Of a stretch of DNA of 64,000 nt, positions 11,423 through 26,894 are shown in pieces. This DNA comes from Pseudomonadota bacterium. Its GTDB lineage: Bacteria > Desulfobacterota > Desulfovibrionia > Desulfovibrionales > Desulfovibrionaceae. Every line of letters begins with the position of its first letter. Positions within the stretch are counted from its first letter, which is position 1. The notes under the pieces are model-generated. The model was not told where the DNA came from, did not search any database, and saw only the letters and a list, made by a program, of their open reading frames with translations. A program made the position numbers and the translations under genes. The DNA is taken from positions 1-64,000 of the forward strand of contig JAHIUW010000023.1 of NCBI GenBank assembly GCA_018816865.1, given 5' to 3'.

Positions 11423-11446
11423 GAGGCCCCGCTGGGGCAGGGCCTC
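11423..11446. terminator. Repeat family 2 GC-rich hairpin (GAGGCCCCGC-TGGG-GCAGGGCCTC) with a conserved TGCAAAGGA 5' flank. Likely terminator of the minus-strand operon ending at 11645.
   Basis: 10-bp inverted repeat. A second copy with 90%-identical flanks sits at 16575-16598. Confidence 0.6.
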
Positions 11447-12070: not shown

Positions 12071-12124
12071 TGTTTCGGTTCTCCTCGCTTGTTGATTTGC
12101 CTATGTAGTCCACGACTCCAGCCA

Positions 12125-12622: not shown

Positions 12623-12664
12623 GGTGATCTCCTTGTTCTCAGATGTTCTGGTGTGGATGAGGCG

Positions 12665-13039: not shown

Positions 13040-13070
13040 GCTGTCTACCTGTGTTGAATAGAATGTGTTG

Positions 13071-13517
13071 TTATTTTTCCTTTTCCATACGCAAGGTGCG
13101 TTTGTAGTAATCCCCCACGGCCTCTTGGAGGGCATTTGCCGCTAACGAGGCGCAATGCGCGTCATCGTCGGGAAGGCCTCCCAGGCGATGGAGGATGACC
13201 TTTCCGGTGATGGCGGAGAGGGCGTCGCTGTGTTTGTTCAGGGCGAGTTCCGCAGCCATGGAGCCACAGATCAGACTGGAGCCGCAGCCGGTTGTTTGGA
13301 ACCCGGACTGACAGACCATGTCGTCTTCGATATTCAAGAAAATGGTTATGTTGTCGCCACACTCTCCGGTCATGGAGCCCCGACAGTTGGTCTGTGGCGG
13401 TTCCCCCATGTTGGGAGGATTGCGCCAGCGGTCATAGGCCTTCTGGCCGTAGAGCGCGCTGGTTTCTTTGTCCATGCGATCTTGCAGGTCGTTGACGAAA
13501 TCATTGATGTCAGCCAT
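13071..13517 (-). CDS. NifU/IscU-like Fe-S cluster scaffold protein.
   Basis: The three scaffold Cys motifs GECGD, GCGSSLI and HCASLA at canonical spacing. Confidence 0.8.
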   Translation of the reverse strand: MADINDFVNDLQDRMDKETSALYGQKAYDRWRNPPNMGEPPQTNCRGSMTGECGDNITIFLNIEDDMVCQSGFQTTGCGSSLICGSMAAELALNKHSDALSAITGKVILHRLGGLPDDDAHCASLAANALQEAVGDYYKRTLRMEKEK

Positions 13518-13609
13518 GGCCCGTTCGTCTCCTTTTGATGGAATATATAGCGATCACCAAGCGTGGGCCCGGTGATCGCCGTAGGGTGGGCAGTACTGAC
13601 CGGGAACAC

Positions 13610-13954
13610 CTATTCGGCGTCCCTTTGATCCAGTTCGGCCATGCGCCGTTGGATGGCCTTTAGTTCTGATTCAAGAATCCTTGCTTGGTTTTGTAGGGCC
13701 TGTTGCTCGTCTTGCGGGCTGGGCGTGAATGCGGCCCCGGCAAGGGGAAGGCCCTGCCAGCCTCCGCAGCGGCCACCACGACCTCCCCGGAAGCCAAAGC
13801 CATAACGCAGGCGCATGCCGTTTGGCCCGTAGCCTGCCCCGTAGCCTGCGCCATACCCCCATGGGGTCGGGGCGTTGACGCCGGTGCACCCACCTAGGCC
13901 CCGGCCCGAGGCCGGGCCGATTCCCATAGGACCCGTTCCGTCTCTGCGTGGCAT
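13610..13954 (-). CDS. DUF5320-family protein. Start at MPRRDGTGPMGIGP.
   Basis: The N-terminus MPRRDGTGPMGIGPASGRGLGGCTG matches the DUF5320 signature; Gly/Tyr-rich middle; C-terminal coiled coil. Confidence 0.6.
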   Translation of the reverse strand: MPRRDGTGPMGIGPASGRGLGGCTGVNAPTPWGYGAGYGAGYGPNGMRLRYGFGFRGGRGGRCGGWQGLPLAGAAFTPSPQDEQQALQNQARILESELKAIQRRMAELDQRDAE

Positions 13955-13974
13955 GATTGCCTCCTTTGCTAATG

Positions 13975-14667
13975 TTACGCCCGCACCAGTGGCGCGTGGC
14001 AGTTCGAACATCTTCGTTGCGAGCAGGGGATGCCAGGCACAGCCTCAACCCTTTGTCCGCAGTGTGGGCATCGGCATGAGACCTGTTTCCGGTTCAAGGA
14101 CGATGCCTCCGGCGGTGTGGCGGGTTCCTCGCGCACATTGCCCTCGCCTGGTTCCATGAGTTGACCGCGTCTGTGCGCATGCCTGCCCTGACCCGACCAG
14201 GACTGCCCCCCTCGTCCGAATCTTCCGGCCCAGAGGAGGTTGCCAGCGGTTGGTTGAGAGCCGCGGGTCATGGAAAGCCTCCCGGCGTATCCTGGAACCA
14301 TGAATTGCTGATTGTCGAGTTGGTCGGCCCGCCATGCTGTGATGAGTTCTTCCAGGTCACCCATGAGGAAAGAGTGAACCGTGATGCCTTGCGCGGCAAT
14401 GACGCCGGACAGCTGCCGCGAGATGGCTCCGCACACCAGGACATCCACTCGCCATCTCTGCAACGCGGCGGTGGTGGCGTATGGTGCTTCGGTCGGCATG
14501 CGCACCACGCGGAGTGGTGTTTTGCAACAAGGGTCCTTCGCCACAAGGACGGCCTGCGACGCGACATCAAAGACCGGCGCTATCCGCTCTTCCCAGACGC
14601 TGAAAGCTGCGTTCATGGTGGGGCCTGCTCCTTCTTGCATTGAAAGAGCAGTATCCATGCCAAGCAA
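13975..14667 (-). CDS. NifX/NafY/NifB-type dinitrogenase FeMo-cofactor-binding domain protein (MTH1175-like) with a C-terminal zinc-ribbon extension. Start uncertain.
   Basis: RIAPVFDVASQAVLV...VDVLVCGAISRQLSGVIAAQGITVH matches the Nif_FeMo_cofactor fold. C-terminal CRCPHCG...CSNCH. Confidence 0.65.
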   Translation of the reverse strand: MLGMDTALSMQEGAGPTMNAAFSVWEERIAPVFDVASQAVLVAKDPCCKTPLRVVRMPTEAPYATTAALQRWRVDVLVCGAISRQLSGVIAAQGITVHSFLMGDLEELITAWRADQLDNQQFMVPGYAGRLSMTRGSQPTAGNLLWAGRFGRGGQSWSGQGRHAHRRGQLMEPGEGNVREEPATPPEASSLNRKQVSCRCPHCGQRVEAVPGIPCSQRRCSNCHAPLVRA

Positions 14668-14744
14668 CAGCCCTGCGCCGTTTGTTTCTATTTGGCTGTC
14701 TTTATTGAACTAAAATTGATTTGCAGGAGGGGAATGTCGTTGAT

Positions 14745-14786
14745 GGGTCGCAATGCTGCGACCTTTCGGAGTGAAAGGGTCGCAGT
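14745..14786. promoter_or_regulatory. Array of three alternating GGTCGCA/TGCGACC half-sites between the sigma-54 activator gene and the NifX-like operon. Candidate UAS/operator, with a weak sigma-54 -24/-12-like element overlapping on the minus strand.
   Basis: GGTCGCAatgcTGCGACCtttcggagtgaaagGGTCGCA. On the minus strand aGGtcgcagcaTTGCg has correct GG-N10-GC spacing about 65 nt upstream of the ORF start. Confidence 0.4.
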
Positions 14787-14790
14787 TCTG

Positions 14791-16182
14791 CTACTCGTTC
14801 TCGGGGTTGGGCAAGGCCGAGTTGTTGCCCCGTGGGGGTGATTCGATGCCCAGTTCTTTGATCTTCCGGAACAGGGTGCTTTTGTGAATGCGAAGATCCT
14901 TCGCTGTCTCCAGTCGGTTGCCGCCGGCGCGCTGAAGCGCGTTCAGGATTAGTTGCGCTTCCATGCTCCTCAGCGTCGCGGCCAGACCGAGCGGGGACGG
15001 ACCCAAGGTGGAGGAATCCGGCGTTAAGAATTCTTCGGGCAGGTGACAGGGCTCGATCATCCCCCGATCACAGACGATGAAGGCCCGTTCGATGACATTG
15101 CGCAGTTCTCGAACATTGCCGGGCCAGAAGTGGTAGGTCAGTAAAGCCAGGGTCTCAGGAGCAAGGGCCTCGACTTGCTTGCCCTGGAGTGCGTTGAAAT
15201 GTTGGATGAAATGCATGCATAGCAGGGGAATGTCCTCCTTGCGGCAGCGCAGGGGTGGCAATTCCACTCGGGCTACATCAATCCGGTAGTACAGGTCTTC
15301 GCGGAAACTCCCTTCCTGGACCAGTTCCTCAAGGCGACGGTTCGTGGCGGCGATTATTCGCACATCCGAGGTCACCGATGCGACGCCGCCCAGGGGTTCG
15401 TAGACATGTTCCTGCAGGACCCGCAACAGCCGGACCTGCATGGCCGGACTGATATTGCCCAGTTCATCAAGAAAGAGAGTTCCGCCCGAAGCCAAGGCGA
15501 AACGACCCGGCTTGTCCCTGTGCGCCCCAGTAAAAGCTCCGGCCTTGTAGCCGAAAAGTTCGGACTCAAGCAGAGACTCCGGCAGGGCTCCGCAGTTCAG
15601 CGCCACAAAGGGGGCACCCTTGCGAGGGCTGAGGGCGTGGATGGTGCGAGCGATCAGTTCCTTGCCCGTGCCTGTCTCCCCCTGGATAAGCACGGTGCTG
15701 GAACTGGCGGCGATGGGTTCAAGGGAGGCGAAGATGCGCTGCATCAGCGGACTGCGGCTGACAAGATCGCCAACACGGAATCGTCCCTCGAGTTCGTGGC
15801 GCAGGGCCTCCACTTCGCTCAGATCACGGAAGGTCTCGGCACCTCCGATGACTTCTCCTGCAGCATTGCGCAGGACGGCCGTGGACAAGCTGATGGGAAT
15901 CTGGTTTCCCGAGGCGTCGATGATGTAGCCCGTGCGACCGATCAGGGGCTTGCCGGTGCGCTGGGTTTCGCGCAGACAGCAATGGTCGCCGCACATGGAG
16001 GATCTGAATACTTCCGAACAACGCTTGCCGAGTGCTTCATGGCGGGGGATGCCGGTGATCTCCTCGGCGGCCCGATTGAACGAGAGGATTCGCCAGTCGG
16101 GGTCCACCGTGAACACACCGTCCGAGATGCTTTCCAGGATTGCCTCATACTGGTCGGGTGATGGTATGGGTTTGATGGTCAT
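14791..16182 (-). CDS. Sigma-54-dependent Fis-family transcriptional activator with an N-terminal PAS domain.
   Basis: PAS (SISDGVFTVD). AAA+ sigma-54 interaction domain with GETGTGKE, the GAFTGA motif and ESELFGY. C-terminal HTH. Confidence 0.9.
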   Translation of the reverse strand: MTIKPIPSPDQYEAILESISDGVFTVDPDWRILSFNRAAEEITGIPRHEALGKRCSEVFRSSMCGDHCCLRETQRTGKPLIGRTGYIIDASGNQIPISLSTAVLRNAAGEVIGGAETFRDLSEVEALRHELEGRFRVGDLVSRSPLMQRIFASLEPIAASSSTVLIQGETGTGKELIARTIHALSPRKGAPFVALNCGALPESLLESELFGYKAGAFTGAHRDKPGRFALASGGTLFLDELGNISPAMQVRLLRVLQEHVYEPLGGVASVTSDVRIIAATNRRLEELVQEGSFREDLYYRIDVARVELPPLRCRKEDIPLLCMHFIQHFNALQGKQVEALAPETLALLTYHFWPGNVRELRNVIERAFIVCDRGMIEPCHLPEEFLTPDSSTLGPSPLGLAATLRSMEAQLILNALQRAGGNRLETAKDLRIHKSTLFRKIKELGIESPPRGNNSALPNPENE

Positions 16183-16625: not shown

Positions 16626-17315
16626 TCAGGGTCGCTGGGCGGCCGTCTGCATCCCTGCGAAATCCCCCTGCACGACACGCTGCAACCAGTTCTCCGAAAG
16701 GCAGCCCCGCTCCAGGGCCAGGGTCTGGTCGGCCAGGTAGGCGGCTTCTTCCAGGTCGTGGGTCACGTGCAGGATGGGGATGGGCAGGACTTGCTTCAGA
16801 TCCCGCAGTTCCCGGCGCAGGGAGCGGCGGGTGTCCACGTCCAGGGCCGAGAAGGGCTCGTCCAGCAGCAGCAACACGGGCTCGCGGGCCAGGGCCTGGC
16901 AGAAGGCCGCGCGCTGGCGCTCACCCCCGGAGATGGCCGCCGGGCGCTTGTCCGCCAGATGGCTGATGCCGAAGGTCGTGAGCAACTCCGCCACGCGGTC
17001 CCTGTCCTTGGTGGCGAAGCCCACGTTGTCGCGCACGCTTAAGTGCGGGAACAGCGGATAGTCCTGAAAGACCAGCCCCAGGCCGCGTCGCTGCGGCGGC
17101 AGGAAAGTCTTGGCCGCAGTATCCACGAACACCGTGTCTCCCAGGGTGACCCGCCCCTCATCCGGCTTCTCCAGTCCGGCCAGGATGCGCATCAAAGTGG
17201 ACTTGCCCGCGCCAGACGGGCCGACGATGGCCGTCAGCTGTCCGGGGGGGCAGCTCAGGCAGACCGCAAGGTCGAAGTGGGGCAGGCGTTTGCTGATCTG
17301 AACGTGCAGGGTCAT
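16626..17315 (-). CDS. modC: Molybdate/tungstate ABC transporter ATP-binding protein (ModC/TupC-like, short form without TOBE domain).
   Basis: Walker A GPSGAGKST, signature ISGGERQR, Walker B LLLDEP. ATGA overlap with the upstream permease gene. Confidence 0.8.
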   Translation of the reverse strand: MTLHVQISKRLPHFDLAVCLSCPPGQLTAIVGPSGAGKSTLMRILAGLEKPDEGRVTLGDTVFVDTAAKTFLPPQRRGLGLVFQDYPLFPHLSVRDNVGFATKDRDRVAELLTTFGISHLADKRPAAISGGERQRAAFCQALAREPVLLLLDEPFSALDVDTRRSLRRELRDLKQVLPIPILHVTHDLEEAAYLADQTLALERGCLSENWLQRVVQGDFAGMQTAAQRP

Positions 17316-17971
17316 GAGCGGCTCCCGTTGCCCAGGCGGTTGATGGTCATCAAGGCCGCAAAGCTGATGGGGATCAGCGCCAGGGACAGATACAGGGCGT
17401 CGTCGTAGCGCAGGGCCTCCACGGCCTCGAAGATGGCGATGGAGGCCACCTTGGTGGACCCGGGCATGCTGCCGCCCACCATCAGGATCACCCCGAATTC
17501 CCCCAGGGAATGGGCGAAGACCAGCACCGACGCCGCGCACAGCCCCGGCAGGCTGTTGGGCAGCACCACCCGGAAGAAGGCCGCCGTGGGCGATAGTCCG
17601 AGGACTGCGGCGGCCTCCAGCAGGCGATGGTCGAGCTTCTGAAAGGCGGCGCGCATGGGTTGCACCGCAAAGGGCAAGTTGTAGACCAGGGACGCGATGA
17701 GGATACCCGCGAAGCTGAACACCAGGCGTTGACCGAACAGGGACTCCCAGGCCGCACCCAGAGGCGCCCCCGGACTCATGCAGACCAGCAGGGCGAAGCC
17801 CAGCACCGTCGGCGGCAGCACCATGGGCAAGGATACCAGGGCGTCGGCCACGCTCTTGCCCCTGAAGCGGAAGAAGGCCAGGGCATAGGCGATGGGCGCG
17901 GCCACCAGCGGCAGCAGCAGGGTGGTCAGCAGCGCCAGCTTGGCGGAGATCACCAGAGGTGTCAGATCCAT
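17312..17971 (-). CDS. modB: Molybdate/tungstate ABC transporter permease.
   Basis: Six-TM MetI-type permease with the EAA loop (EAAAVLG...); translationally coupled to modC. Confidence 0.8.
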   Translation of the reverse strand: MDLTPLVISAKLALLTTLLLPLVAAPIAYALAFFRFRGKSVADALVSLPMVLPPTVLGFALLVCMSPGAPLGAAWESLFGQRLVFSFAGILIASLVYNLPFAVQPMRAAFQKLDHRLLEAAAVLGLSPTAAFFRVVLPNSLPGLCAASVLVFAHSLGEFGVILMVGGSMPGSTKVASIAIFEAVEALRYDDALYLSLALIPISFAALMTINRLGNGSRS

Positions 17972-17999
17972 CGATTTACCCTCATCTCTTCATCCTCAT

Positions 18000-18752
18000 T
18001 TATTCGTATCCGAACTTGGCCTTGATGCTCTTGACCTCGGGGCTGGTCAAGAACTCGATGAATTTGCGCGCGGCCTCGGGATGGGGGGCGCTCTTCAGCA
18101 GACAGGCGGACTGGACCACGGGCGGGGCCTCGACCATGGGCGTGAAGCAGCCCTTGCGACCGAGTTCCGTGAACACCGAGGAATAGGCGACAAAGCCCGC
18201 ATCCGCCGCCCCGGTCTGGGCGAACTGGAAGGCCTGGGCGATGCTCTGGCCGAAGACCAGCTTGGGCTGCATGGAGTCCCAGATGTCGGTCTTCTGCATG
18301 GCCAGCATGGCGGCGGTGCCGTAGGGGGCGGTTTCGGTGTTGGCGACGGCGACCTTGATCGCGCTGGCATCCATGGCGGCCTCATGCCAGGGGCGGTTGC
18401 ACAGCTCCTGCTTCAGGGACCAGAACACGACCTTGCCCAGGGCGTAGACAAAGGGTTTCTCCGCCAGACCGTCGGCAAACAGCTTGTTTGGGCGTTTCTC
18501 GTCGGCGGCCAGGAACAGGTCGTGGGGCGAGCCGTTGCTGATCTGGGCGTAGAGCTTGCCGGTGGAGGCGTAGGTGGCCTCGGCCTTGATGCCGCTGGCC
18601 GCCTCGAAGGCCGGGATGATTTCCGCCATGGCGGGCATGAAATTAGCGGCCTGGGCGATGAGCAGATCAGCGGCGCGGGCCGGGGCCGACATCGTCAGCA
18701 TCAGCCCCAGGGCGAGCAGCAGGGCAGCTGTTTTCAGAAAGTTGCGTTTCAT
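18000..18752 (-). CDS. modA: Molybdate/tungstate-binding periplasmic protein. Start MKRNFLK at 18752.
   Basis: Signal peptide MKRNFLKTAALLLALGLMLTMSAPARA; cluster-D SBP fold; operon with modBC. Confidence 0.8.
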   Translation of the reverse strand: MKRNFLKTAALLLALGLMLTMSAPARAADLLIAQAANFMPAMAEIIPAFEAASGIKAEATYASTGKLYAQISNGSPHDLFLAADEKRPNKLFADGLAEKPFVYALGKVVFWSLKQELCNRPWHEAAMDASAIKVAVANTETAPYGTAAMLAMQKTDIWDSMQPKLVFGQSIAQAFQFAQTGAADAGFVAYSSVFTELGRKGCFTPMVEAPPVVQSACLLKSAPHPEAARKFIEFLTSPEVKSIKAKFGYE

Positions 18753-18922
18753 AGTATTTTGCTCCGGTTCTTGCGCTTGTTGAAGGTTTTCTGGATGCTC
18801 CGAATGGTTCGAGCATGTAGCCATAGGGCGCGCAGGCAAAATGGGCAACGCGGTTACGTTTTCATCGGAAAACGTGACCGAACAGCAGCGCAGGGGCGAC
18901 ATGTGCAACCAGGAGCAAGGCA

Positions 18923-20050
18923 ATGAGCGGCGATCAGGACCCAAACAGACCACGGGATACGGTCCCAAAGACAACCCCGGACACGGCACGGGACACGGCG
19001 GAAGCGGCCAGACCGGCGCGGTTGGCGCCGCACAAGTTTTTTACCGTGCCCGATGGGCTGCGCCATCTCGATGCGGGGCAGTTGGCGCAGTTCGAGGCGT
19101 CGTTCCGTACCTGGGTCGAGGGGGCGCGCCGGGCCGATGCGCGCCGCGCGCGGGAACGCACGCGCCTGCTTTTTCTGCTGTTGCGCTACACCGGGGCGCG
19201 GCTGGGCGAGGTCGTGGGCCCGAACGACCTGGGCTATCTGGACCTTGCGGGCAGCAGGGCCGTGTTCGACGCGAACGGCGGCCAACGCCTGGTGCCGCTG
19301 TCGCGCATGCTCTGCCGCGAGCTGAGTCTGTTCCTGGACGGGCCCATGGGCGCGGGTCTCAGCGGCAATGTCTTTGCGGCGGACCCGGGCTATGTGCGCC
19401 GGGTGTTCTATGCCCGGGCCGAGGCCTGCGGCCTGCCCCGCGAGTTGGGCACGCCCCGGGTGCTGCGCACCTCGCGGGCGGTGGAACTGTTGCGCAGCGG
19501 GGTGCCGCTGGCCGTGGTGCGCGACGTGCTCGGCCAGTCCTCGACGTCTCTGTCCACCGTCTACCAGGCCTACAGCAGCGAGGATTCCCAGCACATCGTG
19601 CGTCGCCTGGCCCCGGATGACCTGCCCCTGCGCAGCAGCGCCCGCAACAGCTTCCCCTGCCGTGTGGAACAGGTCCGTTGCGACGGCGTGTTGGCCGAGG
19701 TCCAACTGCGGACCTACGCGGGAGCGCCCCTGTCTGCGGTGATCACGATGGAGAGTTCGCAGAATCTCGGGCTGGAGCCGGGGGTGCCGGTGGTCGCCAC
19801 GATCAAGGCCCCGCTGGTGGACGTGGGTCAGGCGGACGGGGGCAGGGGCTGCATGTGCAACGCCTTGGCCGCCGTGATCACGGAGGTGCGCAGCAACGAG
19901 GTCGTGGCCGAGGTCATGGGCGAAGCCGCAGACGGAGCGAAACTCTGCGCCCTGGTCAGCGCCGGGGCCCTGCACGACAGCGGCGTGGGTGAAGGCGATT
20001 TGGTCCAGTTCCGGTTCAAGGCCCTGGCCGTGGTTCTGGGCGCCTTGTAG
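18923..20050 (+). CDS. ModE-like Mo-responsive regulator: a tyrosine-recombinase-fold N-terminal domain fused to two TOBE (Mop) molybdate-binding domains.
   Basis: Integrase-like box I (YTGARLGE) and C-terminal LRTSRAVELLRSGVPLAVVRDVLGQSS...TVYQAY. Two Mop repeats (SARNSFPCRVEQV...ATIKAPLV and CMCNALAAVITEV...FRFKAL). Confidence 0.8.
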   Translation: MSGDQDPNRPRDTVPKTTPDTARDTAEAARPARLAPHKFFTVPDGLRHLDAGQLAQFEASFRTWVEGARRADARRARERTRLLFLLLRYTGARLGEVVGPNDLGYLDLAGSRAVFDANGGQRLVPLSRMLCRELSLFLDGPMGAGLSGNVFAADPGYVRRVFYARAEACGLPRELGTPRVLRTSRAVELLRSGVPLAVVRDVLGQSSTSLSTVYQAYSSEDSQHIVRRLAPDDLPLRSSARNSFPCRVEQVRCDGVLAEVQLRTYAGAPLSAVITMESSQNLGLEPGVPVVATIKAPLVDVGQADGGRGCMCNALAAVITEVRSNEVVAEVMGEAADGAKLCALVSAGALHDSGVGEGDLVQFRFKALAVVLGAL

Positions 20051-20123: not shown

Positions 20124-22013
20124 TCAATGCCGTCGCGAATCGGCCACCTCTGGCCTTGCCGCTCCATTCCCCCGTCGTCTCACAAATCCGGTCACGGCCA
20201 TCAGGGCCACGGCCAGGATGATCAGCCCGGCGGCCACGGCCGCGATGACCGGGTCCATCTGGTCGCGGATGCCGTCCCACATCTGTTTGGGCAGGGTGGT
20301 CGAGCGCGCCCCGCTGATGAACAGGGCAACGATCAACTCGTCGAAGCTGGCGATGAAGGCGAAGATGGCGGCGGTGAGCAGCCCCGGGCGGATCAGGGGC
20401 AGGGTGACGTGCGCAAAGGTCCGCAGCCGTCCGGCCCCCAGGCTGTGGCTGGCCTGTTCCAGCCCGTGGTCCAGGCCGTGGAGGGTGGTGGTCATGACGA
20501 TGATCACAAAGGGCACGGCCAGCACGGTGTGGGCCAGGACTAGTCCGGTGATGGTGCCGATGAGTTTCAGTTTGGCCATGAAGAAGTACATGGCCACGGC
20601 GTTGATGATGGCCGGCAGGACCAGGGGGCTGATGAACAGGCCATAGGCGGTCTGGCGGGCCGCCCCTTTGAGGCGGGCGATGCCCATGGCCGCCAGGGTG
20701 CCCAGGACCGTGGCCAGGAGCATCACCGGGGCGGCTACGCGCAGGCTGTTCATGGTGGCCCGCATCCAGGGGCCGGAGCTGAAGAACGATTTGAAGAGCC
20801 CCAGGCCCACGGTCTGGGGCGGGAAGCGCAGGATGGTGTCGTTGGAAAAGGCGATGGGCAGGATCACGCCCAGGGGCAGGATCAGATAAGCCGCTCCCAG
20901 GGCGCAGATCGTCCGCAGCCCCCACAGCCCCCAGGGCACCCTGCGCAGCCCCTGGGGCAGGCGGCAGGCCAGGGCTTCAAAGAGCTGTGTGGTCCGGCGG
21001 GTCCATTGCAGGTGGATTGTCTCGCAACTGTCCAGCCAGCGCTCGGCCCCCCAGTGCATGAGCCTGGTCATGAGGGTCGCCCTCAGGCCGCGTCGTGAGG
21101 CGCGCGGGCCGCTGTGGCCCCCGGGCTTGGAGCCGAACAGGGATTCCAGGCCCATGAAGCGCAGGCACAGGGCAAAGAGCAGCATCACCGTCAGCAGCAG
21201 AACCACGCTCAGCACCCCGGCAAAGGCCCAGTCGTTGACGATCTCCAGCTGGGAATTGATGCTCATGGCGATGACGGTCTCCCTGGGGCCGCCCGTGAGG
21301 GTGGGCGTGACAAAGGTGCCCGCGCCGACGATGAAGGTCAGCAAAAAGGCCGCGGCCACGCCGGGCAGGCTCAGCGGCAAAAAGACCCGGCACAGGCGCT
21401 GCAGGGGCGAGGACCCCAAGCTGTCGGCGGCCCGCAGCAGGTTGCGGTCGATGCCCAGCATGACGCTGTGCATGGGCAGCACGGCATAGGGCAGCAGCAC
21501 GTAGGTCAGGCTGAGGTAGACCCCGCAGCGGTTGTACATCAGCTCCAGGGGGGCCTGGGTCAGCCCCGTCCATTGCAGCAGGCTGTTGACCACCCCGAAA
21601 CGGCCCAGGATGATCATCCATGAATAGGTGCGCACCAGCACCGAGATCCAGAAGGGCAGGGTCACGGCGGCCATGAGCAGCGTGCGCCAGGCAGGGCCGA
21701 AAAAGGTCATGCCGTAGGCCAGGGGGTAGCCCAGCAGCACGGCGGCTGTGGTGGCCCAGAAGCTGATCTCCAGCGTGTTCAGCAGAACCTTTAGATAGAC
21801 GGGGTGTCGCCACAGGTTCGCGTAGTGTTCCAGGGTGAAGTCCGGGGAAAACAGGCTTTGCTGCAGCACCCCTGCCAGGGGCAGCAGATAGAAGACCAGT
21901 AGATAGAGGGCCAGGGGCCCGAGCAGCAGAGCCACGGCCCAGTGGGGCCGCAGCGCGTGCAGCAGGGCGGGCCAGAGGCCCGCCCTGCGTGTTGTGGTGA
22001 GGTGGTGTTCCAT
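20124..22013 (-). CDS. ABC importer permease with two fused MetI-type permease domains (FbpB/ThiP/PotBC-like).
   Basis: 629 aa, about 12 TM, internal duplication; operon with the SBP and ATPase below. Confidence 0.8.
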   Translation of the reverse strand: MEHHLTTTRRAGLWPALLHALRPHWAVALLLGPLALYLLVFYLLPLAGVLQQSLFSPDFTLEHYANLWRHPVYLKVLLNTLEISFWATTAAVLLGYPLAYGMTFFGPAWRTLLMAAVTLPFWISVLVRTYSWMIILGRFGVVNSLLQWTGLTQAPLELMYNRCGVYLSLTYVLLPYAVLPMHSVMLGIDRNLLRAADSLGSSPLQRLCRVFLPLSLPGVAAAFLLTFIVGAGTFVTPTLTGGPRETVIAMSINSQLEIVNDWAFAGVLSVVLLLTVMLLFALCLRFMGLESLFGSKPGGHSGPRASRRGLRATLMTRLMHWGAERWLDSCETIHLQWTRRTTQLFEALACRLPQGLRRVPWGLWGLRTICALGAAYLILPLGVILPIAFSNDTILRFPPQTVGLGLFKSFFSSGPWMRATMNSLRVAAPVMLLATVLGTLAAMGIARLKGAARQTAYGLFISPLVLPAIINAVAMYFFMAKLKLIGTITGLVLAHTVLAVPFVIIVMTTTLHGLDHGLEQASHSLGAGRLRTFAHVTLPLIRPGLLTAAIFAFIASFDELIVALFISGARSTTLPKQMWDGIRDQMDPVIAAVAAGLIILAVALMAVTGFVRRRGNGAARPEVADSRRH

Positions 22014-22032
22014 GCCGGGTCCTGGCGTCCCC

Positions 22033-23052
22033 TTACTGCATCTTCCAGGCTTCCCACCTGGCGGTGACTTCCTTGCCGTGCTCGCGGTACCATTCGCCGT
22101 CGATGACCACGGCGTTCTTCATGTTGTCCGGGTGACTGGGCATCTGACGGGCCAGCTCATCGGGGATGTAGTCGTAGGCCTTGAGGTTGGAGGGGCCGTA
22201 ATAGCTGGCCATGGCCAACGCGGCCTGGCGCTTGGGGTCGGTGGAGTACTTGATGAACTTCATGGCCGCTTCCTTGCGGGGGCAGCCCTTGAGGATGACC
22301 AGATAGTCCAGGTCCACGATGGAGCCGTTCCATTCCACGGCCACGGGCACGCCGTCCTTGGCGATGTCCAGCATCCGGCCCGCGGCAAAGCTGCCCGTGT
22401 CGGCCTCGTGGGCGCGCATGACCTGTTGGGCCTGGGCGCCGTTCTTCCAGTAGACCTTGATCTGCGGCTTGAGTTCGTCGAGCTTCTTGAAGGCCCGGTC
22501 CACGTCAATGGGGTAGATCTGGCTGGGCGGCACGCCATCGGCCAACAGGGCGGCTTCGAGGTTGGAATAGGCCGTGTACTTCACGGCCCTGGGGCCGGGG
22601 AACTTTTCGGTGTCCCAGACGTCGGCCCAGGTCTTGGGGCCCTGGCCCGCAGGCCAGACATCGGTGCGGTAAGCGACGTTGTGCGAATAATAGACCGTGG
22701 ACACGCCAAAGGGCTGGATGCCGCCCTTCACGAAGTCCTCCACCGGGATGCCCGTGAGATCCAGGGGCTCGAACAGGCCGTCATGGGCGCCCAGCACGTA
22801 GCCGTTGATGGACGGTTCCACCACATCCCATTCGATGTTGCCGCTCTGTACCTGGGCCTTCATCTTGGCGTAGTTGGGGAAGGAGACGAAGACGACCTCG
22901 ATCCCGGTTTCCTTGGTGAAAGGTTGGGCGATGGCTTCGTCCAGGGCCTTGTTGTAGGTGCCGCCGTAGCTGCACACGGTGATGGTCTCGGCTTGGGCGA
23001 TCCCGGTGGCTGCGAACAGACACAGGGCCACGACGAGTAAGGCGCGTTTCAT
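22033..23052 (-). CDS. Periplasmic substrate-binding protein, cluster D (PotD/FbpA/ThiB-like).
   Basis: Signal peptide MKRALLVVALCLFAATGIAQA; 339 aa; family-1 extracellular solute-binding fold. Confidence 0.75.
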   Translation of the reverse strand: MKRALLVVALCLFAATGIAQAETITVCSYGGTYNKALDEAIAQPFTKETGIEVVFVSFPNYAKMKAQVQSGNIEWDVVEPSINGYVLGAHDGLFEPLDLTGIPVEDFVKGGIQPFGVSTVYYSHNVAYRTDVWPAGQGPKTWADVWDTEKFPGPRAVKYTAYSNLEAALLADGVPPSQIYPIDVDRAFKKLDELKPQIKVYWKNGAQAQQVMRAHEADTGSFAAGRMLDIAKDGVPVAVEWNGSIVDLDYLVILKGCPRKEAAMKFIKYSTDPKRQAALAMASYYGPSNLKAYDYIPDELARQMPSHPDNMKNAVVIDGEWYREHGKEVTARWEAWKMQ

Positions 23053-23101
23053 ATTGAGGACTCCAAAGTGTAAAAGGGTTGCTGCAAATCGATCCCGGCC
23101 A

Positions 23102-24199
23102 TCAGATCACGAAGGTGGCGTCATCGGGCCGCCAGCCAAAGTCGATCCTGTCTCCGGGGAGGAACTTGGGGGTCTCCCCCCGATTGTGCATCTTCATGAC
23201 CACCAATCCACCTGTGCCTTCGCTGTCAAAGCCCTTGGGACGGATGAAATACTTGATGGTATCGCCTTGGTGGATGAGGTTCTCCAATTGCCCCTTCATG
23301 GCGCAGAGGCTGCCCGCATTGCCGTTGACGAAGCTCAGCTTCTCGGGCCGGATGGACAGGAAGCCTTGCTGTCCGGAGTGCAGCAGACAGCAGGTCCGAG
23401 CCGCGGTGCAGTCCCCGTTGGGCATGCGCACCGCCAAGTTCGACTCGCTGGCGTCCAGGGTCGTTGCCCGGAAGAGATTGGTCTCGCCGATGAACTCGGC
23501 CACGAAGCGGTTGGCGGGCGAATCGTAGATCTGGGCCGCCGGACCGAGTTGCTCCACCCGGCCCTCGTTGATGACCGCGATGCGGTCGGACATGGTCAGG
23601 GCCTCCTGCTGGTCGTGGGTCACGTAGAGCACGGTGATGCCCAGACGTCGTTGCAGGTCCTTGAGCTCCAACTGCATGTGCTCGCGCAGGTTCTTGTCCA
23701 GGGCGCTCAGGGGTTCGTCCATGAGCAGTACGGGCGGATTGAAAACCATGGCCCTGGCCAGGGCCACCCGCTGCTTCTGGCCGCCCGAGAGCTGGGAGGG
23801 CATGCGCTCCTCCAGGCCTTCCAGACGCACGGAGGCGATGGTTTCGGCGACCTGTCTGGCGCGTTCGGCCCTGGGGATACGGCGCATGCGCAGGGGATAT
23901 TCGATGTTCTGGCAGACGTTCATGTGCGGGAACAGGGCGTAGTTCTGGAAGACCACGCCCAGGTTGCGCCGGAACGGGGCCAGGCGGGTCACGTCGCGTT
24001 CGCCGATGGCCACGAACCCGGCCTCGGGGGTGGCGAAACCGGCCACCACCATCAGCAGGGTCGTCTTGCCCGAGCCCGAGGGCCCCAACAGGGTCACGAA
24101 CTCTTTTTCCTTCACATCCAGACGGACCTTGTCCAGGGCCGTTACGGGCCCGTAGAACTTGGAGACGTCGTGGATGCGGATTCCCTTAGCAGTGCTCAT
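23102..24199 (-). CDS. ABC transporter ATP-binding protein with C-terminal TOBE-like domain (PotA/FbpC-like).
   Basis: [28 protein letters not shown]. Its start ATG overlaps the stop of the oxidoreductase gene (ATGA). Confidence 0.85.
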
Positions 24200-26292
24200 G
24201 ACTGTTCTCCAGCAAGACCCTCGACGCGGCAGGCCATGCCCCGCAAGGTCGGCGAGCCCAGTTCTCGGCCGCACGGGCCGTCGGCGTCCGTGAGCAGATT
24301 CAGGTTTGCCTGTTGCCAGCCAAAGCCATTGTCCGCTCCCTGTTCCGGAAACCACCAGCCGTGTTCGGCCATCACCACCCGCGGGTCCAGGCGGCTGTCC
24401 AGACGCACCCGTTGGACGATGGTGCCCCGGGCAGTGGCCAGGCGGGCCATGTCGCCGTCGCCCAGACCCAGGGGCCGGGCCGTGTCCGGGTGCAGGCTCA
24501 GGGTCGGTTCGGGGTTCGCCTTGCGCAGGGAGGCCAGTTGGCGACCGCAAGAGTGGTAGAAGGTGGCGGATTTGCGGCTGGCCAGCACCAGGGGGAAGGC
24601 GGTCCCCAGGGGCGCGGGCTCAAGATAGGTCGGCAGGGGGGCGACCCCCCAGCCCTCAAGGGTGCTGGAATACAGCTCCACCAGCCCCGAAGGGGTGGGA
24701 AAGCCATGGGTTTCGTGGGCCCGGGGTTGCCCGGGGCCGTATATCACTCCCTTGGCCCGGAATTCGTCGAAGCTCAGGCCCGAGGGCTGAAGATAGAAGT
24801 CCAGGAACTGGCGCGTGTCCGCAAAGGCCTGTTCGCCGCTGCCCATGCGCCGGGCCAGGTCGTTGCAGATCTGGCCCTCGCTGCGGGTCTGGCCCGGGTC
24901 GGCGGCGCGCTGCTGCACCGTGGCCGCGGGCCAATGCCAGGGCTGTTCCACGCTGTCGTGCTCCAGGTACATGGAGGCCGGGAACACGATGTCCGCCAGG
25001 GCGGTGGTGGGAGTCATGAAATGGTCCGTGGTGGCAAAGAATTCGAGTTTTTCCAGGGCCCGGGCCATGAGCTGCGAGTCGGCGCTGGTGCACAGCAGGT
25101 TGCCGCCCTGGAGATAGACCCCCCGGACGGGGTAGGGCTCGTCGTCCAGGATGGCCTTGGCCACCAACTGGTGGGGCACATAGGGGAAATCGGGTAGCAT
25201 TCCAGCACCGGCACCCAGGCGTTGGGCGGTCATGCCTTGGGGCAGCAGGTCCGGGCGCGTGAACAGGGGGGAGCGGCGTAGCAATTCGCCCTCGTCGGAC
25301 CACAGGATGTCCGAGCCCGGGGCCCCAAGATTGCCCGTCAGGGCCCGCAGGATGCAGATGGCGCGGCAGGTCTGGTAGTTGTTGGGGCCGGATTCCAGGG
25401 CGTTGCCCCAGAGGATGCATCCGGGGCGGATCGTGGCGTAGAGGCGGGCGGCCTTGCGGATGTCCTCGGCCGCGACCCAGGTCATGGCCTCGACCCGTTC
25501 GGGGGTATAGGGTTCCAGATGGGCGCAGAGGCGTTTGAAACCCACGGTCCAGCGCTCGATGAACTCCTGGTCCTGAAGGCCCTCGGTGATGATGACCCGG
25601 GCCATGCCCAGGGCCAGCGCCCCGTCAGAGCCCGGACGCGGCCTCAGCTGGAGTTCGGCTCGCTCGGCCTTGGCGCAGGGGTCGATGACCAGCAGCTTGG
25701 CTCCGGCGGACATGGCCCGAACCACTTCCTGGTGCAGGGCGGGGTGGGTGGCCCGGGGGTTCATGCCCCAGAGGACCATGCACCGGGGTGGGTGCTCCAT
25801 GTCCGGGTAGGCCCAGAAGCCGTAGGTATGCTTGGAGGCCAGGGCGCAGGGTGCGTAGCAGATGGACGAGGTGGTGGAGACGTTGGGCGAGCCGAAGATG
25901 TTTGCCAGGCGGGTCAGATGGTCGTCGCTGGTGCCTTTGGAACCGCCGCGCATGAAGGCCACGGCCTGCGGCCCCAGGCGGTCGCTGACCTGGGTCAATC
26001 CCTGGATCGTGGCGTCCAGGGCCTCGTCCCAGGAAATGGGCTCCCACTGCCCGCCGCCGCGCGGTCCGCTCCGTTTGAGGGGTCGGCGAAGCCGCTGTGG
26101 GTGGTCCAGCATCTCCAGGGCCGCCCGTCCGCGGGGGCAGAGCCTGCCCCGGCTCAAGGGGTGATCCGGGTCGCCCGTGACGTGCACCGGCCGTGCGTCG
26201 CGCACATGAACCAGCACACCGCATCCGTTGTAGCAGAGGCGACAGGTGCTTCTGATGGTCGCGGAGCCCTGTGTCGCGGGCTTGTCCGACAT
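24196..26292 (-). CDS. Cytoplasmic molybdopterin oxidoreductase (MopB/DMSO-reductase superfamily) with an N-terminal [4Fe-4S] motif. Substrate unknown.
   Basis: CRLCYNGCG...C FeS motif. MopB core (ICYAPCALAS..., WGMNPRATHP). No Tat signal. No partner electron-transfer subunit genes adjacent. Confidence 0.8.
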   Translation of the reverse strand: MSDKPATQGSATIRSTCRLCYNGCGVLVHVRDARPVHVTGDPDHPLSRGRLCPRGRAALEMLDHPQRLRRPLKRSGPRGGGQWEPISWDEALDATIQGLTQVSDRLGPQAVAFMRGGSKGTSDDHLTRLANIFGSPNVSTTSSICYAPCALASKHTYGFWAYPDMEHPPRCMVLWGMNPRATHPALHQEVVRAMSAGAKLLVIDPCAKAERAELQLRPRPGSDGALALGMARVIITEGLQDQEFIERWTVGFKRLCAHLEPYTPERVEAMTWVAAEDIRKAARLYATIRPGCILWGNALESGPNNYQTCRAICILRALTGNLGAPGSDILWSDEGELLRRSPLFTRPDLLPQGMTAQRLGAGAGMLPDFPYVPHQLVAKAILDDEPYPVRGVYLQGGNLLCTSADSQLMARALEKLEFFATTDHFMTPTTALADIVFPASMYLEHDSVEQPWHWPAATVQQRAADPGQTRSEGQICNDLARRMGSGEQAFADTRQFLDFYLQPSGLSFDEFRAKGVIYGPGQPRAHETHGFPTPSGLVELYSSTLEGWGVAPLPTYLEPAPLGTAFPLVLASRKSATFYHSCGRQLASLRKANPEPTLSLHPDTARPLGLGDGDMARLATARGTIVQRVRLDSRLDPRVVMAEHGWWFPEQGADNGFGWQQANLNLLTDADGPCGRELGSPTLRGMACRVEGLAGEQS

Positions 26293-26894
26293 GGCTCTGG
26301 CTTGCCACATGCTGTTTCCCCCTCGCCTGTGTCGAAGATGATTGCGTAGAAAAAATAAGTATCAGTAATAACTATCTAAGGTATCATACTGGTCAATAGT
26401 TTGAATTGCAAAAGGTTTGGGCCTTGCTCAAACTCATGCACCTGAATCAAGGGGCTGCATTCTTGAATTCTCAGCAGTGACAAGCTTGTTGATGATGAGC
26501 TGGGCCAAACTTGGTGGTGGGAAGAATTGCCGGGAGAAGACAGGGGGGCAGGCCAAAAACAATGCCGGGGAGCGGACTCTCTGGCTTTTTCCATGACATC
26601 GGAGGAGATCACAGGATTTGTCGGCGCTGCTGATGGGCAGGTGGTCCTCGGCCCGGTTCTGCTGCAGTTCGTCGCGAGAGGTCCTTGCCCGAACGGGCAG
26701 GTCAGAACAGGAAAAACTCTATTTTTGATTTTAAGAGAGCGTGGATTGTCAGTCTTGAGAACTGAGTGTTTGTATCTTTCACAGCGACTTACGGATTGCA
26801 AAGCATATGAAAAGTGGCTAAATATCAAACCACCTATCATGGACGGGGCTGACTGGATCGCGGGTCATCGTGAACAGTACGAGGGGGGGGCAGC

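Follow-up and report, generated by a model that had tools for sequence, protein, structure and literature searches.

The enzymes most closely related to the one considered here belong to three described types. Gordonibacter-type catechol dehydroxylases, such as Cldh and Dodh, are bis-MGD enzymes that have no Tat signal and are predicted to be soluble; their partner is a small 4Fe-4S protein and their transporter is of the MFS type (Maini Rekdal et al., 2020; PMC7028382). Acetylene hydratase (AH) of Syntrophotalea (Pelobacter) acetylenica (PDB 2e7z) is a monomeric cytoplasmic protein with one [4Fe-4S] cluster. The N-terminal module of metallopterin-dependent ergothioneine synthase (MES) resembles AH, contains bis-MGD and uses a betaine, trimethylhistidine, as substrate; it is fused to a cysteine desulfurase, and sulfur exchange between ergothioneine and trimethylhistidine persists when the desulfurase domain is removed (PMC9516567). 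On the transport side, the PotABCD, PotFGHI and Atu4243 importers combine a TOBE-domain ATPase, PotB- and PotC-like permease halves and a cluster-D substrate-binding protein (SBP). In Atu4243, an Arg is reported to bind the GABA carboxylate, with GABA stacked between aromatic residues.

Here we describe a 64,000-nt stretch of DNA (contig JAHIUW010000023.1; hereafter the window) from a sulfate-reducer-like bacterium, in which a conserved four-gene unit links an uncharacterised Mo/W enzyme to the predicted uptake of a small organic acid that contains nitrogen.

Organization of the operon and its importer

An earlier, sequence-only reading of the window proposed four minus-strand genes, coding for a molybdopterin oxidoreductase (MopB), an ATPase, an SBP and a fused permease. 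All four open reading frames are present with the functions given to them (Table 1), and the self-contained enzyme and importer operon is real. The claimed ATGA overlap can be read directly (...CAG TCA TGA / ATG AGC ACT). The proposed start of the MopB gene at 26292 is the second Met; the ATG at 26310 is the better choice, having GAGGGGG 8 nt upstream and agreeing with the 704-aa database protein P0001/MBU1002583.1. In D. ferrophilus, TTTACA-18-TATAAT is found at the position aligned to the candidate promoter of the window, and no sigma-54 site was found upstream of the MopB gene. No gene for an Fe-S, cytochrome or flavin subunit was found inside or adjoining the operon, and no MttB, Grd or other catabolic gene neighbours it in the window.

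Table 1. Features of the enzyme-importer operon and the neighbouring regulator gene in the window.
Feature	Position	Strand	Basis and remarks
MopB enzyme	24196-26310	-	Molybdop_Fe4S4, Molybdopterin and Molydop_binding (Pfam); 704 aa
ATPase, PotA/CysA/MalK type	23102-24199	-	ABC_tran and C-terminal TOBE_2; 365 aa
Periplasmic SBP	22033-23052	-	SBP_bac_8, Sec leader; 339 aa
Fused PotB+PotC double permease	20124-22013	-	Two BPD_transp_1 stretches; 629 aa
ATGA overlap, MopB stop/ATPase start	24196-24199	-	Direct sequence reading; translational coupling
Sigma-70-like promoter, TTGCAA-17-TATGAT	26383-26411	-	Consensus match only; ~73 nt upstream of MopB start
Regulator	18923-20050	+	TOBE/Mop domains

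The operon lies beside modABC (modA and modB score above the NCBIfam cutoffs) and a regulator gene, as had been reported, but a functional link does not follow, as neither the D. ferrophilus locus nor the other loci show this adjacency. The label 'ModE-like' suits the TOBE/Mop domains of the regulator and needs correction for its N-terminal domain, which is integrase-like.

The ATPase passes the subfamily cutoff of the potA model TIGR01187 (365.7 bits versus 355.6). The PotB-like half of the permease (residues 27-280; 195 bits) and its PotC-like half (residues 375-613; 147 bits) are each under the equivalog cutoff, and the SBP, which has a Sec-type leader (MKRALLVVALCLFAATGIAQA, then ET), scores 54 bits against PotD (cutoff 582) and 34 bits against PotF (cutoff 636). 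The best PDB matches of the SBP are 4i1d (1e-64) and Atu4243 (1e-58), followed by Pf622 and the agropine and mannopine binders; the ligands of its solved relatives are GABA, mannopine and agropine. Sequence comparison places the SBP in the GABA/opine branch within the PotD/F family, which runs counter to the comparison with Fbp and Thi importers originally offered; the likeness to PotABCD holds for architecture and goes no further. Residues R226 and D249 of the SBP align to Arg203 and Asp226 of Atu4243 and are invariant across the SBP clade. This Arg and Asp are reported to be the key GABA contacts of Atu4243 (Planamente et al., 2012).

An uncharacterised enzyme clade and its recurrent pairing with the importer

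MopB carries the [4Fe-4S] motif C23-x2-C26-x3-C30...C58, and its first Cys lies as early as residue 23, with no RR motif ahead of it, which leaves no room for a Tat leader. The description of a cytoplasmic enzyme with one cluster and no partner subunit was borne out. With MopB, all NCBIfam equivalog models stay far under their cutoffs (NasC, 191 bits versus 1100; NasA, 125 versus 1000; NapA, 96 versus 904). Its best BLAST scores among characterised enzymes are with Cldh (33% identity, 335 bits) and Dodh (29%, 303 bits), followed by AH (29-31.6%, 290 bits; E 1e-85 in the PDB sequence search) and the MES module, whose reference sequence was taken from an OCR'd supplement (30% over the full length, 218 bits). 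The AF2 model of MopB (pLDDT 93) has AH as its top Foldseek match (2e7z; TM 0.90, rmsd 2.6 Å). MopB thus falls within none of the characterised clades, and of the two comparisons made from the sequence alone, that with a standalone hydratase is the better fit and that with NarB/NasA the poorer. The HGWWFPE motif and the Cys ligand, common to the relatives, are kept. MopB is assigned to an uncharacterised 'CYN / EQPW' clade and would be a monomer in the cytoplasm, with bis-MGD (Mo or W) and a [4Fe-4S] cluster.

The order MopB-ATPase-SBP is found in nine independent loci, namely the window, D. ferrophilus (L001), L005, L087, L088, L090, L091, L170 and L173, among which the MopBs are 47-74% and the SBPs 54-90% identical. 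The fused permease comes next in every one of these loci whose contig extends that far (the L173 contig stops earlier), and the permease is likewise fused in L002, L005, L087, L088, L090 and L170. The 4-nt MopB/ATPase overlap is also seen in L001, L002 and L087; the more distant loci have a gap of 2-35 nt instead. Such recurrence, in nine independent loci and at MopB identities as low as 47%, puts the arrangement far outside what chance would produce. In L004, a MopB of the same clade is accompanied by a Liv-type ABC importer instead.

In a neighbour-joining tree, which is crude (BLOSUM distances, no bootstrap, few reference sequences), the MopBs of the nine importer loci and L004 cluster together, and the wider family that contains them appears as the sister group of the Gordonibacter-type dehydroxylases, with AH next. 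Members of the clade share the motifs CR[LI]C[YF]N-x-CG, RG[GA][ST]KGxxD[DV] and EQPW[HD] and are devoid of the Arg of C[YF]xPR. Homologues with 49-50% identity from two phenolic-acid contexts, L171 (AthL-like neighbours) and L172 (TRAP, Amidohydro_2 and MarR), have none of the three. The clade is a distinct, uncharacterised orphan clade of enzymes; its gain of Asp-Asp and Glu and its loss of Arg would fit a cationic group on the substrate.

Relatives of the SBP adjoin genes for MttB-type methyltransferases, corrinoid proteins and glycine/sarcosine/betaine-type (Grd) reductases. Among 82 metagenome loci with SBP relatives, MttB-family genes were found in eight and corrinoid proteins in six, the MttB and Grd neighbours being mainly those of SBP relatives with 37-56% identity, which may bind a different ligand. 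L089 and L107 encode Grd selenoprotein B, component C and thioredoxin, and the genes in L173 form a string of HTH-cupin regulator, MtgB-like MttB, corrinoid protein, clade MopB, ATPase, SBP and GrdG/F-like genes. Members of the wider enzyme family are found near genes of organic-acid catabolism (SDR, crotonase, acyl-CoA dehydrogenase, TRAP, URO-D and small Fe-S partner genes) and in phenolic catabolic contexts. XDH-family hydroxylases adjoin clade members in L004 and L088.

Substrate class and reaction

The substrate is most likely an organic amine or a betaine-type zwitterion, and probably not an inorganic oxyanion, because the SBP falls in the GABA/opine subgroup, keeps both aligned contact residues and has relatives beside MttB, corrinoid and Grd genes. 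The small anion or oxyanion-like substrate proposed earlier is supported neither by the ligands of the solved SBP relatives and the invariant Arg and Asp nor by the genomic contexts of the SBP relatives and of the wider enzyme family.

The reading that we tentatively prefer, at somewhat less than an even chance, is that of a single unit made up of an importer of a small organic zwitterion or cation and a Mo/W enzyme that converts the same compound, likely reductively. The ABC importer would bring in a compound whose carboxylate is combined with an amino or a quaternary-ammonium group, e.g. of the omega-amino-acid or betaine type, possibly with a further hydroxyl, oxo or thione group or a (hetero)aromatic ring. 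In the cytoplasm, the soluble enzyme would then remove an oxygen (or sulfur) substituent by two-electron reduction, a dehydroxylation or deoxygenation. A low-potential ferredoxin or flavodoxin of general function would supply electrons to the single [4Fe-4S] cluster, the metal would be bound by Cys151, and Tyr27 would stand where AH has its acid/base residue Asp13 and the dehydroxylases have His. The product may be an ordinary amine or betaine, which in other genomes would enter MttB/corrinoid demethylation or Grd-type reductive cleavage. The reaction type suggested here is an extrapolation, because identity to every characterised enzyme is only ~30%, and the suggested electron donor is equally tentative.

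The lack of an electron-transfer partner gene, seen throughout the transporter-coupled loci, is as compatible with a non-redox enzyme of the AH kind as with a ferredoxin-dependent reductase. An AH-like enzyme, with the same module and the same organic substrate class, would add water or shift a hydroxyl, e.g. by hydrating an unsaturated bond, and its cluster would tune the metal site and relay no electrons. AH is the best solved structural match, is likewise monomeric and cytoplasmic, and shares with MopB the Cys ligand, Trp293 and Trp472; yet its catalytic Asp13 is replaced by Tyr, four of the six acetylene-pocket residues are altered or missing (Ile14 to Asn, Ile113 to Ser, Ile142 to Tyr, Trp179 deleted), and BLAST scores and the tree place the family marginally nearer the redox-active dehydroxylases. 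We consider this alternative unlikely. Less likely still is an oxidative enzyme comparable to resorcinol hydroxylase or ethylbenzene dehydrogenase, a water-dependent hydroxylase or dehydrogenase delivering electrons from the imported compound to ferredoxin or another acceptor: hydroxylations are known among bis-MGD enzymes and the XDH-family neighbours of two clade members would accord with it, but the acceptor subunit is absent, known MopB hydroxylases are heteromeric, and the nearest relatives are reductive or non-redox.

The original suggestion of a ferredoxin-dependent, NarB/NasA-like reductase of an imported inorganic or small oxyanion (nitrate, chlorate, selenate, tetrathionate or similar) appears highly improbable. 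MopB does resemble NarB/NasA in being cytoplasmic and monomeric, with one [4Fe-4S] cluster, a Cys ligand and possible ferredoxin dependence, and modABC adjoins the operon; however, the NarB/NasA family models reach only ~1/6 to 1/8 of their cutoffs, there is neither an Nrt/Nas-type nitrate transporter nor a nitrite reductase gene, and the SBP type, the organic-nitrogen and phenolic contexts of the relatives and the unconserved modABC adjacency all stand against it. Sulfur transfer or desulfurisation of a betaine in the manner of MES, e.g. reductive removal of the thione sulfur of imported ergothioneine or of a comparable thione to give the plain betaine and sulfide, is very unlikely. It would agree with the betaine substrate of the AH-like MES module, with the sulfur exchange that survives loss of the desulfurase domain, with the full-length alignment and with the ties of the importer family to quaternary-amine enzymes, but MES is the most distant characterised relative and the MopB gene has no cysteine desulfurase, rhodanese or EgtD-type methyltransferase neighbour. 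No ergothioneine transporter (EgtUV, an OpuC-type system) is known to resemble the importer of the operon. Finally, the pairing might be meaningless, an ordinary polyamine or GABA importer sharing a transcript with an unrelated enzyme, as the potA assignment of the ATPase and the lack of other pathway genes nearby in the window would allow. We give this little credence: the gene order persists over a wide range of enzyme identity, the clade motifs track transporter coupling, the reading frames overlap, and the PotD and PotF scores are an order of magnitude under the cutoffs.

Comparison with known systems

Like MopB, the Gordonibacter-type dehydroxylases have a transporter gene adjoining the enzyme gene, the HGWWFPE motif and a Cys-Tyr pair (SCYQP in Dodh, ICYAP in MopB). 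They differ in having a partner protein and an MFS transporter where the window has no partner and an ABC importer, in the residue after the second cluster Cys (His versus Tyr) and in the Arg of CYxPR, which is missing in MopB; in this pair, the DD and EQPW motifs are found only in the MopB clade. Identity of MopB to the dehydroxylases (29-33%) is under the 34-48% range within that group. AH shares the overall organization of MopB and differs in its pocket; acetylene, being a gas, needs no binding-protein importer. MES, in turn, has the fused cysteine desulfurase that MopB lacks. The window importer has the same components as PotABCD, PotFGHI and the Atu4243 system, its SBP being closest to 4i1d and Atu4243, but it differs in failing the PotD and PotF equivalog models, in its fused permeases and in its predicted co-transcription with a Mo/W enzyme.

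Organization, expression signals and recurrence of the operon

The four-gene minus-strand operon proposed in the sequence-only reading was borne out by its open reading frames, by domain assignments with Pfam and NCBIfam profiles and by the overlap of the ATPase start with the MopB stop (ATGA). We place the MopB start at the ATG at 26310, which is favoured by a GAGGGGG ribosome-binding site, rather than at 26292 as initially read; the open reading frame itself stands. The cluster motif of this protein is C23-x2-C26-x3-C30...C58, and a Tat leader is excluded because only 22 residues, lacking a twin arginine, lie before C23. No Fe-S, cytochrome or flavin subunit genes adjoin the operon among the window ORFs, so the earlier description of an enzyme with neither Tat signal nor partner subunit genes holds.

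Features of the window and of compared loci (L numbers)
Feature	Coordinates	Strand	Remarks
D5_N primase-like gene	1918-4050		just upstream of the low-GC stretch, normal GC
GNAT + CN_hydrolase fusion	5903-7552		low-GC stretch
Ankyrin-repeat protein	7636-9804		722 aa; low-GC stretch
FUSC-family exporter	10012-11082		low-GC stretch
PocR-domain protein	12125-12664		low-GC stretch
Sigma-54 promoter	14647-14662	-	near-consensus, TGGCATGGATACTGCT; after the sigma-54 activator gene
PAS-containing sigma-54 activator	14791-16182	-	best NCBIfam match proline-reductase regulator PrdR, below cutoff
modA, modB, short modC	16626-18989	-	genuine
Regulator	18923-20050	+	divergent from modABC; integrase-like N-terminal domain + TOBE/Mop domains
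Permease	20124-22013	-	629 aa; two BPD_transp_1 halves, PotB-like + PotC-like
Binding protein (SBP)	22033-23052	-	339 aa; SBP_bac_8; Sec-type leader
ABC ATPase	23102-24199	-	365 aa; ABC_tran + TOBE_2
MopB	24196-26310	-	704 aa; Molybdop_Fe4S4 + Molybdopterin + Molydop_binding (Pfam); MBU1002583.1
Sigma-70-like promoter	26411-26383	-	TTGCAA-17-TATGAT; consensus match
Region with GATA-rich stretch	26311-26420	-	TATGATACCTTAGATAGTTATTACTGATAC
Region with GATA-rich stretch	L001:9900-10000; L090:380-443
Split permease	L001:14288-16149		D. ferrophilus, GenBank chromosome
Fused permease	L002:6569-8431		D. ferrophilus, Logan assembly
Second MopB	L088:1381-4589; L090:7223-9063; L094:12100-15286
203-aa ORF	L099:11231-11842
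Tandem MopB paralogues	L172:4793-9097
Transporter and Grd-type genes	L089:6848-16553; L107:118-9125
MttB, MopB and Grd-type genes	L173:3971-13775		one direction

The GC content around the operon is ∼ 0.63–0.68. A sigma-54 promoter was sought upstream of the operon and none was found, and an Rfam scan of the whole window returned no element, Moco riboswitch included. When the upstream regions of seven loci were aligned, no leader or operator proved conserved apart from the promoter-like element and a GATA-rich stretch within the region that runs from this element into the 5' leader. The stretch is common to the window, Desulfovibrio ferrophilus (the closest cultured relative at the operon locus) and L090 but is not kept in more distant loci; it could be a candidate operator for some regulator.

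The gene order MopB-ATPase-SBP was found in nine independent loci, the window included, and the fused permease comes next in every such locus whose contig extends that far. Identities to the window MopB and the window SBP, respectively, are 69% and 90% in D. ferrophilus (L001 and L002), 73% and 77% in L087, 53% and 70% in L005, 51% and 68% in L170, 50% and 56% in L088, 47% and 57% in L090, 48% and 57% in L091, and 48% and 54% in L173. A GTDB scan with the MopB alignment added no members to the coupled clade but supplied a contrast set: among the matches listed, the importer was absent beside the MopB gene in all 80 genome loci with MopB relatives of 37–47% identity (Syntrophaceae, Dehalococcoidia, Desulfobacterales, Bathyarchaeia and Archaeoglobus). 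The homologues in L171 and L172 are 49–50% identical to the window MopB, yet their contexts are quite different, comprising two AthL-like MopBs and a pyrogallol-transhydroxylase-like beta subunit in L171 and a TRAP transporter, Amidohydro_2, MarR and AOR fragments in L172.

In a neighbour-joining tree made from a MAFFT alignment with BLOSUM62 distances (a crude tree, without bootstrap), the transporter-coupled MopBs cluster together as two subclades, along with the MopB of L004, whose gene precedes a URO-D gene and a Liv-type ABC importer. Members of this clade, here called CYN/EQPW, are alone in carrying the motifs C-R-[LI]-C-[YF]-N-x-C-G (at the cluster), R-G-[GA]-[ST]-K-G-x-x-D-[DV] and EQPW[HD]. 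They also differ at C-[YF]-x-P-R, the motif after the metal-ligand Cys: its Arg, kept by the Gordonibacter-type catechol dehydroxylases Cldh and Dodh and by every family member outside the clade, is Cys or Gly in them. The MopBs of L171, L172, L003 and L016 (47–50% identity) lack every clade feature. The gain of two acidic motifs and the loss of a basic residue near the metal ligand would be expected if the substrate carried a cationic group.

Several observations concern the compared loci themselves. The D. ferrophilus permease is split into two genes (347 and 267 aa) in the GenBank chromosome and is one fused 620-aa gene in the Logan assembly with an identical MopB; the discrepancy stems from a frameshift or sequencing difference, or else the strains truly vary. 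The two tandem paralogues of L172 are ∼ 49% identical to the window enzyme and lack its motifs; the Amidohydro_2 gene there belongs to the phenolic-acid decarboxylase family, the AOR fragments are of tungsten-AOR, and this is likely a hydroxybenzoate-type (de)hydroxylation locus. L088, L090 and L094 encode, beside the same transporter family, a second cytoplasmic MopB of ∼ 810 aa (70–77% identical among the copies) that is DmsA/YnfE-like, has a YTTC-x-C-N-CGSTSQC N-terminus and lacks a Tat leader. A 251-aa DmsB-like subunit follows in L088 and L094, and the L090 contig ends inside the gene; L094 lacks the acetylene hydratase-like enzyme but has MttB and a corrinoid protein. This second MopB looks like an importer-fed cytoplasmic S- or N-oxide-type reductase. 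In L099, an MttB/corrinoid/URO-D locus, the permease genes are followed by a 203-aa ORF with Molybdop_Fe4S4 and the start of a Molybdopterin domain, representing either a truncated pseudogene or readthrough of a recoded stop codon.

The binding protein and the substrate class

The ATPase passes the potA subfamily model TIGR01187 (365.7 vs 355.6). The SBP is not of the polyamine-binding type, as it scores 54 vs 582 with PotD and 34 vs 636 with PotF, and classical polyamine binders rank much lower among its solved relatives. The nearest of these is 4i1d, an unannotated Bradyrhizobium SBP (1e-64), followed by the selective GABA binder Atu4243 (4eq7/4euo, 1e-58); others are the Pf622 scaffold of iGABASnFR and the agropine/mannopine binders AgtB, AttC and MotA. 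R226 and D249 of the SBP, invariant in 25 clade members, align with Arg203 and Asp226 of Atu4243, which we take to be the residue numbers of its GABA contacts. According to the Atu4243 authors, the GABA carboxylate is bound by Arg and the ligand is stacked between aromatic residues. The genomic partners of the SBP (MopB, MttB and Grd) differ, which argues for a ligand other or bulkier than GABA.

In a survey of 82 metagenome loci with SBP relatives of 36–59% identity, the commonest specific enzyme neighbours were MttB-family methyltransferases (8/82) and their corrinoid proteins (6/82), and crotonase, Amidohydro_2, DAO and NMT1 genes were also present. Non-pyrrolysine MttB homologues are quaternary-amine methyltransferases, namely MtgB, MtpB, MtcB and MtyB. 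L094 combines RpiR, PrpD-like, MttB, corrinoid protein, hydantoinase-like, SBP and fused permease genes with a 2-hydroxyacid dehydrogenase and a cytoplasmic DmsAB-like pair, whereas L089 and L107 join the transporter to Grd-type selenoprotein B and alpha subunits, component C beta, thioredoxin and URO-D. In some genomes the CYN/EQPW clade is genetically linked to MttB/corrinoid and to glycine/sarcosine/betaine-type reductase genes. The most telling context is that of L173, where three enzyme systems are tied to one importer: a PuuR-like HTH-cupin regulator, an MttB homologue (best solved match, the glycine betaine methyltransferase MtgB), a corrinoid protein, MopB, ATPase, SBP and GrdG/GrdF-like genes, the GrdF-like product being selenoprotein B, after which the contig stops before the permease. 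The MopB of L173 carries every clade motif at 48% identity to the window enzyme.

In L089 and L107, two SBP copies and the fused permease are interleaved with the glycine/sarcosine/betaine-type reductase genes and an NMT1-like protein gene. The URO-D gene there is of the URO-D-family methyltransferase type, and the GRDB ORFs end at about residue 363 of a ∼ 435-position model, which fits an in-frame selenocysteine UGA.

Taken together, the relatives of the SBP and its contexts suggest an organic nitrogen compound with a carboxylate (omega-amino-acid, N-methyl amino-acid or betaine type), and we consider it fairly probable that the substrate belongs to this class and is not an inorganic oxyanion. 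Neighbours of the wider enzyme family, which include SDR, enoyl-CoA hydratase, acyl-CoA dehydrogenase, FAD-oxidase, TRAP, URO-D and dehalogenase-like genes, agree with an organic substrate. The small anion or oxyanion-like substrate put forward from the sequence alone is therefore disfavoured by the proximity of the SBP to GABA and opine binders, the MttB/Grd contexts and the organic-catabolic contexts of the family. Carnitine, hydroxyproline betaine, ergothioneine, DMSOP, L-DOPA and 3-nitropropionate were considered as substrates, and the evidence singles out none of them.

Molybdate genes and other regions of the window

The modABC genes next to the operon are real, as had been claimed, although the short modC lacks a TOBE domain, but their regulator is not a canonical ModE-like protein. 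Instead of a ModE-type HTH before tandem Mop/TOBE domains, its N-terminal half matches tyrosine recombinases (Phage_integrase, 24.5 bits; XerA/XerD models); the TOBE/Mop part matches TIGR00638 (78.6 bits) and the ModE score is 50.7 vs 369. The combination of integrase and TOBE/Mop domains is presumably the TunR architecture, reported for tungstate-responsive modABC regulation in Desulfovibrio (Kazakov et al., 2013). Synteny with D. ferrophilus is kept on the side upstream of MopB (radical SAM, FGGY kinase and Glp-like genes) but does not extend to the mod/regulator side: in D. ferrophilus, L087, L005 and L170 other genes follow the permease. Adjacency of the operon to the mod genes is thematically apt but, since the mod side is not conserved, provides no evidence of a functional link.

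The GC content falls to 0.56–0.60 at 4–16 kb, compared with ∼ 0.66 elsewhere, and the four genes listed for this low-GC stretch, together with the D5_N primase-like gene, may be an integrated element (positions 1–16000). The sigma-54 promoter in this region does not serve the MopB operon.

Proposed chemistry and relation to known MopB enzymes

Every NCBIfam equivalog scores far below its cutoff with the window MopB: Fdh-alpha TIGR01591, 281.5 bits (cutoff 666); PhsA, 275 (694); NasC, 190.7 (1100); DmsA/YnfE, 183 (778); bisC, 150 (about 1018); and NasA_Halo, 125.1 (1000). Acetylene hydratase (AH, EC 4.2.1.112, PDB 2e7z) is the best solved structure by PDB sequence search (E 1e-85), with PsrA/PhsA and FdhF behind. 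An AlphaFold model built from 66 homologues (mean pLDDT 93) likewise has 2e7z as its best Foldseek match (TM 0.90, rmsd 2.6 Å, 29% identity), the runners-up FDH, Psr, Nap and Arr reaching TM 0.78–0.87. We took Cldh and Dodh from the alignment file of Maini Rekdal et al. (2020), the module of metallopterin-dependent ergothioneine synthase (MES; PMC9516567) from its supplement and AH from the PDB-search alignment. In BLASTP against the window MopB, an unnamed homologue in the former file (33%, 365 bits) ranks ahead of Cldh (33%, 335 bits), Dodh (29%, 303 bits), AH (31.6%, 290 bits) and the MES reference CaMES (30%, 218 bits). The neighbour-joining tree places the family as a whole as the sister group of the Gordonibacter-type dehydroxylases, with AH the next relative and MES beyond it. 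With this sister position and the low equivalog scores, the tight clustering in a characterised clade that the sequence-only reading had named as its possible refutation was not found.

Three further candidates were rejected: FdhF, which has Sec/Cys-His where the window enzyme has a Cys151-Tyr152 dyad; PhsA/PsrA, whose known members are Tat-exported with partner subunits; and BisC-type reductases, which lack the Fe-S domain. All three groups also fail on the scores listed.

We tentatively suggest a reductive reaction, a possibility that falls somewhat short of probable. The importer would deliver a zwitterionic or cationic organic substrate to the cytoplasm, where the Mo/W enzyme would remove an oxygen (or sulfur) substituent, with electrons passing from a general ferredoxin or flavodoxin to its single cluster. 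This model draws on analogies with the reductive chemistry of the closest relatives, with the NarB-like architecture that has no dedicated partner, and with the DmsAB-like reductases, likewise cytoplasmic, that accompany this transporter in L088, L090 and L094. The main rival, AH-like chemistry without redox change (hydration or the shift of a hydroxyl), appears unlikely, even though the absence of partner genes backs it as much as the reductive model. Oxidative hydroxylation is distinctly improbable. Sulfur chemistry of the MES type, to which the similarity to CaMES might point, seems slightly less probable again; MES has a fused C-terminal PLP cysteine desulfurase, whereas the window protein ends at residue 704 with Molydop_binding. 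Reduction of an oxyanion, for which the sequence-only reading had invoked NarB/NasA, hardly merits consideration: the enzyme scores far below the cutoffs of those models and so fails the family test, and neither the ∼ 10 kb flanking the operon on each side in the window nor L001, L087 and L170 contain nitrate transporter or nitrite reductase genes.

Going beyond the reductive model, and with more doubt, one may speculate that the CYN/EQPW clade represents a new Mo/W activity in anaerobic metabolism of quaternary amines or N-methylated amino acids, possibly reductive O/S removal from a modified betaine. Such a substrate might be hydroxylated, oxidised or thione-bearing, possibly (hetero)aromatic, and its reductive dehydroxylation, deoxygenation or desulfurisation might give a plain betaine or amine that could then undergo MttB/corrinoid demethylation or cleavage by a Grd-type selenoenzyme. 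We know of no Mo/W-dependent step in the MttB/Grd (quaternary-amine) pathway, and our literature search found none; if the clade acts on betaines, quaternary-amine metabolism would thereby have its first pterin-dependent step. The pathway serves anaerobic turnover of osmolytes and methylated amines and bears on trimethylamine and methane precursors in sediments and guts. Bis-MGD enzymes are a recurrent source of unexpected reactions, such as the hydration of acetylene, the dehydroxylation of catechols and the step of ergothioneine synthesis that forms a C-S bond, and the present result cautions against taking every cytoplasmic MopB for an oxyanion reductase. For an orphan clade with its own importer, the SBP ligand would point to the enzyme substrate; the dedicated importer and the links to MttB/Grd genes make the function directly testable, and the presence of the clade in the cultured D. 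ferrophilus makes genetics and physiology feasible. Should the substrate be one already known, such as catechol, the significance would drop to ordinary.

The window MopB shares with AH the bis-MGD fold, the N-terminal Cys4 [4Fe-4S] domain and a monomeric, cytoplasmic form. The metal ligand Cys141 of AH corresponds to Cys151, which is invariant across the 66 homologues, so that the conservation of the Mo ligand, a check proposed from the sequence alone, is confirmed. In contrast, Asp13 of AH (CDINC), reportedly essential (Seiffert 2007; tenBrink 2011), is replaced by Tyr27 (CYNGC), with Tyr or Phe there throughout the clade. Of the hydrophobic acetylene pocket, which we take to consist of Ile14, Ile113, Ile142, Trp179, Trp293 and Trp472, only Trp293 and Trp472 are kept; Ile14, Ile113 and Ile142 have become Asn28, Ser124 and Tyr152, Trp179 is deleted, and Lys48 is changed to Arg60.

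The Gordonibacter dehydroxylases, for which AH was named as the closest characterised relative, are Tat-less, smaller and soluble, and are accompanied by a small 4Fe-4S partner and, next to them, an MFS transporter (Maini Rekdal et al., 2020; PMC7028382). Cldh, Dodh, Hcdh and Vadh are 34–48% identical to each other, whereas the window MopB is only 29–33% identical to Cldh and Dodh, and its family is sister to the dehydroxylases and not nested among them. Their small 4Fe-4S subunit gene is absent in the window and other transporter-coupled loci. A subfamily of 37–39% identity has a small Fe-S gene downstream in at least 15 loci and a dehydroxylase-like CHGGC motif, whereas the window clade has neither; if the proposed chemistry is correct, the clade would parallel the gut catechol dehydroxylases as a cytoplasmic enzyme fed by an importer. 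No description of the MopB-importer module was found in the literature searched. Thus, the residue mapping and the scores indicate that the enzyme resembles AH and the dehydroxylases in fold and cofactor set while belonging to neither family, and the module is a well-delimited variant, an orphan clade within a known superfamily.
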